Below are positions 29,414 to 29,703 of a DNA stretch of 64,000 nucleotides, in pieces. This DNA comes from Xanthobacteraceae bacterium (lineage in GTDB: Bacteria; Pseudomonadota; Alphaproteobacteria; Rhizobiales; Xanthobacteraceae): positions 29,835-93,834 of the forward strand of contig JBEKIC010000003.1 in the NCBI GenBank assembly GCA_050011955.1, in the 5' to 3' direction. Every line of letters starts with the position of its first letter. The first letter of the stretch is position 1. The notes under the pieces are model-generated. The model saw only the letters and a list, made by a program, of their open reading frames with translations. It was not told the origin of the DNA and searched no databases. The translations under genes were made by a program, and so were the position numbers.

Positions 29414-29703
29414 GGTGCGGGCGGCCGGAATCGAACCGGCACGGGGTTACCCCCAACGGATTTTCATACCAGCTACGGCTTTCGCCGCCGCCACGGATGG
29501 CGTTTGTGGTCTGGACTATACCTTCACCCTAGCGACTGGCCGTAGGTGCTGCCCGTCTAGTCTCTACACCTTCCCTTTCGGGCTTGGCTCGGGATTGCCA
29601 TCTGACAGGTTCCCCCGAATTTGAGCAGTTCTGCGTCTCGGGTTTCCCGCGAGCGCACTCAATCCTTCAAGTCCGTTGCGTCTACCGTTCCGCCACGCCC
29701 GCG
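29414..29703 (-). tRNA. tRNA-Leu(UAA) interrupted by a group I intron (exons 29670-29703 and 29414-29465)
   Basis: Reverse complement is GCGGGCGTGGCGGAACGGTAGACGCAACGGACTT-[204 nt]-AAAATCCGTTGGGGGTAACCCCGTGCCGGTTCGATTCCGGCCGCCCGCACCA. The joined exons give an 86-nt class II cloverleaf with all stems complementary, loop CUUAAAA. Confidence 0.85.
29466..29669 (-). ncRNA. group I intron (IC3-like), 204 nt, no internal ORF
   Basis: Inserted between U34 and A35. The 5' exon ends in U, which can form U.G in a P1 helix (exon ACUU / intron GAGU). The intron ends in G. GAAA-capped hairpins are present, and the core strings CAAAUUCGGGGGAA, AUGGCAAUCCCGAGCCAAGC and GAAGGUGUAGAGACUAGACGG are close to the Azoarcus tRNA-Ile intron as I recall it. 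Confidence 0.8.

Follow-up and report, generated by a model that had tools for sequence, protein, structure and literature searches.

How a tRNA-Leu(UAA) gene interrupted by a group I intron came to lie beside an integrase gene in an alphaproteobacterium, and what the intron might be doing there, are the questions raised by a stretch of 64,000 nucleotides (hereafter the window) from a Xanthobacteraceae bacterium (GenBank assembly GCA_050011955.1, contig JBEKIC010000003.1, positions 29,835 to 93,834 of the forward strand). We found the gene to be part of an integrated island, and the island has probably broken the host's own tRNA-Leu(UAA) gene and supplies its function from its own intron-bearing gene located after the tyrosine integrase gene (int). 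That the island destroyed the host gene and that the intron-bearing gene replaces it had not been seen in the initial annotation of this DNA, and it is what we consider of greatest interest here. What gives the locus its value is the disrupt-and-replace island together with an intron placed within the integrase target, and not the intron alone.

A search of public assemblies for a protein encoded in the host flank yielded same-species contigs. Two of these contigs (L151 and L155) were colinear with the window. A third contig, L152, which belongs to the same species and is of metagenomic origin (two samples), showed 99.9% DNA identity to window positions 45817..31062 and then 98.8–100% identity to positions 2334..1. 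L152 joins window position 31062 to position 2334, and the region 2335..31061 (28,727 bp) is therefore an insertion, missing from the island-free contig, that contains both int and the intron-bearing tRNA gene. This agrees with the proposal in the initial annotation that the gene is carried on a mobile island. The G+C content was about 55% in window positions 1-30,000 and about 63% beyond, with the step near the integrase-proximal end of the island. At its join, L152 contains an intact, intron-less tRNA-Leu(taa) gene of 86 nt with a sequence unlike that of the island tRNA, whose specific features include the acceptor GCGGGCG and the anticodon stem ACGGA.

In the window, this host gene was found in two pieces. 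The displaced 5′ half (31062..31099, minus strand; GCGGACG...GGGACTTAAAA) is identical to the 5′ half in L152 and forms the attL side, and the displaced 3′ part (2277..2334, minus strand; GGACTTAAAATCCC...CCA), which reaches from the anticodon loop to CCA, forms the attR side. The core of the attachment (att) site is a 10-bp direct repeat, GGACTTAAAA, that corresponds to the end of the anticodon stem and the loop of the host tRNA-Leu(UAA). Only two copies were present in the window, one per island end (31062..31071 and 2325..2334, both on the minus strand). At attL the host 5′ half is followed by GCGGACCAGACC..., at attR the host 3′ part is preceded by ...CATCGAA, and at both ends the adjoining island DNA was not tRNA-like; the putative attP sequence of the island contains ...CATCGAAGGACTTAAAAGCGGACC.... 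No restored tRNA was detected at either island junction by ARAGORN with default settings. Compared with L152 (14743-14800), the displaced 3′ part (2277-2334) was shown to differ in one base of the variable arm (GGGGGGAACCCC vs. GGGGGAAACCCC), which could represent early decay or a strain polymorphism.

The island borders are located 1.36 kb and 27 kb from the intron-bearing gene, and no second copy of the 3′ end of that gene, as expected for an att site, was present within the window. Taken alone, this missing repeat would wrongly suggest a lack of island borders; L152 places the att site in a different tRNA gene. It is highly probable that the island is real, that the host gene is split and that the intron-bearing gene is the island's replacement for it.

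The island-borne pre-tRNA-Leu(UAA) gene is located at 29702..29413 on the minus strand and comprises 290 nt including the encoded CCA, of which 86 nt make up the mature tRNA. It consists of a 5′ exon of 34 nt (29669..29702, minus strand) that ends in ...ACGGACUU with U34 as the -1 base, a group I intron of 204 nt (29465..29668, minus strand) that begins and ends with G and has no open reading frame (ORF), as had been stated initially, and a 3′ exon of 52 nt (29413..29464, minus strand) that starts with AAAAUCCGU, includes the long variable arm, the T arm and A73, and ends in ACCA. In silico joining of the exons gave an 86-nt class II tRNA with the loop CUUAAAA, called as tRNA-Leu(taa) by ARAGORN. 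The initial annotation was right on this product and on the length removed, and its intron coordinates (29466-29669) were one base too high for this minus-strand gene. ARAGORN in intron mode placed the insert at 34/35, between U34 and A35, in agreement with the insertion point proposed earlier. With default settings, zero tRNAs were reported for the whole 64-kb window including both junctions, just as had been foreseen for standard tRNA callers.

A search against Rfam showed that RF00028 (Intron_gpI) was the sole family at gathering score in the window (54.0 bits vs. a gathering score of 50; E = 6.6e-11). In P1, exon ACUU pairs with intron nt 9-12 (GAGU), which places a U-1·G9 pair at the 5′ splice site, and this U·G pair was kept in 52/52 aligned relatives. 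The intron 3′ end (...GGUAUG/AAAA, with the slash at the splice site) carries the omega G; as omega G was part of the pattern used in the search for relatives, these give no independent support for it. The hairpins CGGGAAACCCG, CCCGAAAGGG, and GGCGAAAGCC lie at intron nt 20, 87, and 183, and their GAAA loops at nt 23, 90, and 186 cap P2, P6a, and P9b. Three strings that had been likened to the Azoarcus intron were located at intron nt 46, 68, and 96, and GAAGGUGUAGAGACUAGACGG was found unchanged in the Azoarcus seed. The P1 pairing, the terminal G, the GAAA-capped hairpins, and the three strings had been pointed out in the initial annotation and were recovered here.

The structure was analyzed on an alignment of 52 non-redundant intron sequences (set A2) using a hand-completed P1–P9 model that includes the P3/P7 pseudoknot. 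RNAalifold drew P7 wrongly, and P6 and P7 were entered by hand and then tested on the alignment. In the P1–P9 model, 98.0% of the cells were paired vs. 86% in shuffles and 31-46% in slid controls, double-sided (compensatory) changes were found in 34/61 pairs, and 0/500 shuffles matched the model on any of five measures. The helices P3, P4, P6, P7, and P8 had 92-100% of their cells paired, with compensatory changes in P3, P7, and P8, and with P4 and P6 invariant. As the exon and intron pairs covary across relatives, selection on the RNA is implied.

Pairwise comparison with the aligned seed introns of bacterial tRNA genes published by Williams (2020; bioRxiv 10.1101/2020.01.27.920355) showed 80% identity to Ncf2, a seed of the Leu.3Ug class, and lower identities to the other seeds, namely Arg (71%), cyanobacterial Leu (62%), and Azoarcus Ile (59%). 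The periphery is compact, with P2 and P9 carrying tetraloops and without P5abc. As in the Leu.3Ug class, the in silico spliced product is tRNA-Leu(UAA), the intron follows the third base of the loop, U is found at -1 and the intron ends in omega G. By its sequence, a chance match to a group I intron is excluded, and the identities to the Leu.3Ug seed and to the Azoarcus tRNA-Ile intron show it to be an ordinary representative of the IC3-like group I introns of bacterial tRNA genes, class Leu.3Ug, where the label IC3 is that of Williams (2020) and not that of a subgroup classifier. The initial assignment to this kind of intron, and the consistent P3–P8 core that it implied, were thus confirmed by the RF00028 match, the covariation, and the comparison with the cyanobacterial and Azoarcus seeds.

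Relatives were collected by a pattern composed of the conserved core and the 3′ splice junction, which matched 28 IMG/VR contigs and at least 120 species-representative genomes. The matches listed included Bradyrhizobium, Paracoccus, Rhodobacteraceae, Caulobacterales, Sphingomonadales, Rhizobium, and Azospirillum, but also Carnimonas, Microbulbifer, Halioglobus, and many Acidobacteriota. Among the same matches, both splice junctions could be placed in 147 (including the window and two plasmid loci), of which 143 spliced in silico to tRNA-Leu(UAA) and two to tRNA-Leu(CAA) with C at -1. The expectation in the initial annotation that such introns are few outside cyanobacteria, and that one in tRNA-Leu(UAA) would be unusual, did not hold, since the same intron type is present in at least 120 species, mostly Alphaproteobacteria. 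The intron as such is ordinary and of the catalogued class Leu.3Ug.

The order of int followed by a replacement tRNA gene was found to recur in dozens of contigs. Among the matches listed, about 22 intron-selected genome loci had the intron-bearing gene directly preceded by an int homolog (50-66% identical). In all 12 testable int loci from other species, i.e., those int-bearing loci where the detector for tRNA halves was applicable, the 5′ half, ending in CTTAAAA, of another, intron-less tRNA-Leu(UAA) gene was present 120-250 nt before int. The island tRNAs were alike across loci, and the displaced halves varied from host to host. A second architecture was observed in six loci (L134, L034, L038, L072, L073, and L084), in which only 160-190 nt, without int, separate the displaced half from the intron-bearing gene that follows it.

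A selection by integrase only, which avoids the bias of selecting by intron, was obtained by a metagenome scan in which 80 loci were kept of more than 580 int relatives. In these loci, a UAA 5′ half upstream was accompanied by an intron-bearing tRNA downstream in 30-31 of the 32 loci with data, and was never paired with a plain tRNA-Leu(UAA) gene downstream. Sister elements were found to split tRNA-Leu(CAA) at CTCAAAA and to carry a plain tRNA-Leu(CAA) in seven loci, while other sister elements splitting CTCAAAA carried an intron-bearing tRNA-Leu(CAA) with C at -1 (four loci) or an intron-bearing tRNA-Leu(UAA) (two loci). The possibility that the plain tRNA-Leu(CAA) genes after int are regenerated hybrids was rejected in 4/5 informative cases: the acceptor stem of the intron-less downstream tRNA mismatches the displaced half, and these are therefore whole foreign genes. 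A few int relatives are classical (L160, L201, L213, and L214) and adjoin an intact tRNA-Phe, tRNA-Trp, or tRNA-Leu gene; L201 showed true regeneration of tRNA-Leu(CAA), for which the 5′ half is repeated in identical form. Junctions of attP type, where the core has non-tRNA DNA on its left, were present in L168, L172, L221, L224, and plasmid pCTX-M3.

Some further observations were made on these elements. The introns in L187, L190, L200, and L203 belong to the "Leu.3Cg" type (C for U at -1), which was singled out as odd by Williams (2020; bioRxiv 10.1101/2020.01.27.920355); they are located in intron-bearing tRNA-Leu(CAA) replacements on sister elements, where the -1 C is C34. One integrase gene in L133 is preceded by a tandem pair of displaced tRNA-Leu(UAA) 5′ halves (2215-2330) with a spacing of 76 nt, which suggests successive insertions at the same site. 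Beside an intron-bearing tRNA-Leu(UAA) gene, C-terminal fragments of int were found in L002 (4519-4832) and L086 (5646-5813), and an int pseudogene with two in-frame stops in L088 (2287-3504). These remnants are consistent with islands that decay in place and leave the intron-bearing gene behind as a resident copy.

In the island's own gene, the att core is split by the intron (GGACTT/AAAA, with the intron at the slash). Among the integrase-selected loci, the canonical GA-CTY/AAAA-TC was split by the intron in 35/35 intron-bearing replacements, whereas an intact GA-CTY-AAAA-TC was kept in 0/12 intron-less replacements. The intron-less variants were GG-CTCAAAA (3), GA-TTCAAAA (3), CA-CTCAAAA-TG (2), CA-CTTAAAA-TG (2), and GT-...-AC/GC (2), and 60 of the 63 displaced target halves ended in GA-CTYAAAA. 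Fisher's exact test for 35/35 vs. 0/12 would give a probability of about 2e-11 if the loci were independent, which they are not, as they are related. The pattern is correlative, and it is as expected if a replacement must lack a contiguous target, either by means of the intron or by point changes.

These results support, in our view with good probability, a disrupt-and-replace island that has broken the host tRNA-Leu(UAA) gene and supplies its function from its own intron-bearing gene after int. The island tyrosine integrase would have recombined at GGACTTAAAA in the host's single-piece tRNA-Leu(UAA) gene and left its 5′ half separated from its 3′ part by 28.7 kb, with neither junction rebuilding a tRNA, so that the function would come from the island's own gene directly after int. 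The pre-tRNA would be transcribed, the intron would remove itself by the two-step guanosine-initiated reaction by use of the U·G pair in P1 and omega G, and the mature island tRNA would read UUA and UUG. As a tRNA-Leu(UAA) must contain CUUAAAA, the spare gene would form a second integrase target, at a distance of about 1.4 kb from attL in the integrated island or from attP in the free one, and recombination at an uninterrupted spare would excise int. The intron would hold the halves of GA-CTTAAAA-TC 204 bp apart in the DNA, although the mature replacement necessarily contains the target. The island could thus carry a working copy of the destroyed gene without a second att site beside int. Splicing, expression, the role of the island copy as the only working tRNA-Leu(UAA) gene, and immunity to the integrase are predictions from the sequence.

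That the intron protects the spare gene from the island's own integrase is an interpretation to which we give a little less than even weight. Somewhat more tentatively, the intron may be regarded as a DNA-level insulator that yields an integrase-proof spare, and elements of this kind may, through allelic replacement and subsequent decay of int and the displaced half, have spread an endonuclease-less tRNA-Leu intron among Alphaproteobacteria, some Gammaproteobacteria, Acidobacteriota, and enterobacterial resistance plasmids.

Several points weigh against these interpretations. The contrast of 35 vs. 12 loci is inflated by shared ancestry, and the intron-less variants fall into only about six different types. 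On its own, the single-sequence fold of the intron was unexceptional (z = -1.76), a fold in which the P3/P7 pseudoknot cannot show. The Pfam family Phage_integrase was below threshold for the window integrase alone (21.7 bits), and searches with int (protein and 12-member profile) of PDB, as well as of NCBIfam, gave nothing relevant. A further host tRNA-Leu(UAA) gene may possibly be located outside the 64-kb window.

The remaining points of this kind also favor the strongest alternative, in which the island breaks and replaces the host gene while the intron has no role and was simply inherited with the resident gene of a donor. We consider this a real possibility, although we do not favor it. 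Intron-bearing tRNA-Leu(UAA) genes are common, and among the matches listed, only about 28 of the 120 pattern-selected genome loci had this integrase or a displaced half adjacent. Sister elements use intron-less replacements, which shows that the intron is not required for disrupt-and-replace, and the need of P1 for exon ACUU could alone explain the canonical 5′ side of the intron-bearing genes. Against this alternative stands the finding that the replacements that keep the target are all split by the intron and that no intron-less one keeps it. Further, none of about 50 loci contained an element that targets tRNA-Leu(UAA) and carries a canonical replacement without an intron, and the int remnants in L002 and L086 suggest that many genes that look resident descend from islands.

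It is improbable that the gene is dead, with an inactive intron or tRNA and with another tRNA or wobble used by the host for UUA. Such an explanation would fit a promoter and terminator scan around the gene that found nothing on the minus strand, and the int reading frame that overlaps the 5′ exon. However, the catalytic-core helices, the U·G pair, omega G, the tRNA stems, A73, and CCA are all intact in the window copy, the exon and intron covariation implies selection on the RNA, and the module is conserved with integrases that are only 50-66% identical. Least of all do we expect the intron-bearing gene to be the host's resident gene at or beside the integration site of a classical regenerating island, for although the integrase adjoins the tRNA gene, the composition shifts within about 1.5 kb of it, and some int relatives lie beside intact or regenerated tRNA genes (L160, L201, L213, and L214), L152 has neither int nor the intron-bearing gene and carries a different, intron-less tRNA-Leu(UAA) at its join, the borders are remote from the gene with no other copy of its 3′ end in the window, and an assembly chimera is unlikely for a contig recovered from two samples with a perfect tRNA at the join.

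A homolog of the intron-bearing tRNA-Leu(UAA) gene was also found on resistance plasmids. Plasmid pCTX-M3 (L001, NC_004464.2, 61823-62121) contains a full-length, intact and unannotated homolog, and about 1,265 other plasmid records from Escherichia, Klebsiella, Salmonella, Acinetobacter, Aeromonas, and others carry it as well (about 73% identical to the window gene). Its neighbors are a gene for a tmrB-like ATPase and aac(3)-IId, and the gene of Enterovirga aerilata (L084) shares 92% identity with it. The core GGACTTAAAA is present about 160 nt upstream of the plasmid gene with non-tRNA DNA on its left, i.e., as a junction of attP type. The aac(3)-IId/tmrB module may thus be derived from an alphaproteobacterial element of the island's kind; the intron-bearing gene and the att core both point to such a source for a module present on more than 1,200 resistance plasmids.

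The island integrase (29659..30921, minus strand; 420 aa) is encoded directly upstream of the tRNA gene, in the same orientation, with its start codon 141 nt from the att core, and matched PHROG_1 ("integrase") with E 2.6e-34 over residues 14-363. Phage_integrase was detected by Pfam in 8/12 int homologs (best E 1.5e-7), and the invariant Arg, Lys, Arg, and Tyr motifs (NTGLRPDE, VRGKRG, YSLRHTY, and KNCRTSVEMI..YY) were present in the 12 int homologs. The int frame extends 44 nt into the tRNA gene and has its stop codon inside the intron. The tail of about 38 codons (29659-29775, minus strand), which extends past the point where conservation within the family ends, lacks conservation among homologs, and some int homologs contain stop codons.

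Sequences that look like arm-type integrase sites were found inside both island ends. Between the att core and int (30952..30971, minus strand), TCTTACACA is preceded by CTTGCACAA, and inside the other end (2392..2412, minus strand), TCTTACACA occurs together with TTTTACACA. Exact copies of TCTTACACA occur nowhere else in the window, and each of the two lies close inside an island end. The motif TTACACA was located 40-60 nt before int in 64/77 related loci (9.2 vs. 0.05 per kb in the background, about 190-fold), and the TCTTACACA and TTACACA sites are thus putative arm-type sites.

Besides int and the spare tRNA gene, the cargo assigned by Pfam comprises a PD-(D/E)XK/zinc-ribbon gene, an avidin-like gene (26941-27330, minus strand), a ParE/RelB pair, Band_7, Peptidase_S74, a LuxR-type regulator, two TrwB/TraD-like ATPases, Replic_Relax, an RPA-like initiator, and a methylase-Mrr fusion. 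Among the ORFs scanned, a subset of the total, none was recognized as a type IV secretion gene. The PD-(D/E)XK/zinc-ribbon gene (28337-29407, plus strand) encodes a protein of 356 aa with an N-terminal zinc ribbon of IS1/IS1595 type and a weak PD-(D/E)XK nuclease match; it abuts the 3′ end of the island tRNA gene and is retained in the island variants L153 and L154. These two variants, from strains that are 98.4% identical, contain the same int-tRNA module with partly different cargo.

Compared with known systems, the intron itself does not differ from the Leu.3Ug class, to which the classical cyanobacterial and plastid trnL intron belongs (Williams, 2020), and shares with it the host gene, the CUU/AAAA insertion point, U at -1, omega G, and the core. 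The available parts of the preprint text (bioRxiv 10.1101/2020.01.27.920355) contain no mention of intron-bearing genes on islands that split tRNA genes. Full-text literature searches on bacterial tRNA group I introns found only Williams (2020), and such searches found no description of an island with an intron-bearing replacement tRNA, though an earlier mention from the Williams laboratory is possible. Like the IC3 intron of Azoarcus tRNA-Ile(CAU), the intron has about 205 nt, no ORF, GAAA tetraloops on P2 and P9, no P5abc, and an identical P7/J6-7 string (GAAGGUGUAGAGACUAGACGG), but it is located in another tRNA at another position of the loop, is only 59% identical, and differs in P5, P6a, P8, and P9.

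The island resembles those described as Islander/TIGER islands (PMC4383910) in its tyrosine integrase at the edge, tRNA gene as target, short direct repeats, displaced fragment, and foreign composition, and its empty site is known. According to the part of that work available to us, restoration of the target tRNA at the junction by island sequence is the defining feature of Islander islands. Here, neither junction restores the target; both parts are displaced, and a separate complete gene is present internally. As it has no junction tRNA, the island works like the Islander type and is not filed as a standard member. It departs from the textbook rule that islands targeting tRNA genes regenerate their target, as the target stays broken and a complete spare is supplied. 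Tools that seek a regenerated tRNA and one displaced fragment will misread such islands, and default tRNA callers will report a genome without tRNA-Leu(UAA).

The closest parallel to the proposed role of the intron is the hypothesis of Randau and Söll, with the case of Caldiarchaeum, that archaeal tRNA introns at att sites prevent integration (PMC3293823); the same work also proposes that an intron delivered by a mobile element could benefit the element. In both systems an intron at a tRNA attachment sequence is argued to block site-specific recombination, and here the intron lies inside the att core. The archaeal cases concern protein-spliced (bulge-helix-bulge) introns in host genes, whereas here the spare gene belonging to the element contains a bacterial group I intron of the self-splicing type, and it is the element that would be protected. 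The arrangement offers a horizontal route for a group I intron without a homing endonuclease and bears on the patchy distribution of the tRNA-Leu intron, long a matter of debate. If true, the proposed role would give a concrete function to a bacterial tRNA intron, with a recombinase target that is split in the DNA and mended in the RNA by self-splicing, and would extend to bacteria an idea that has up to now been put forward for introns of archaea alone.

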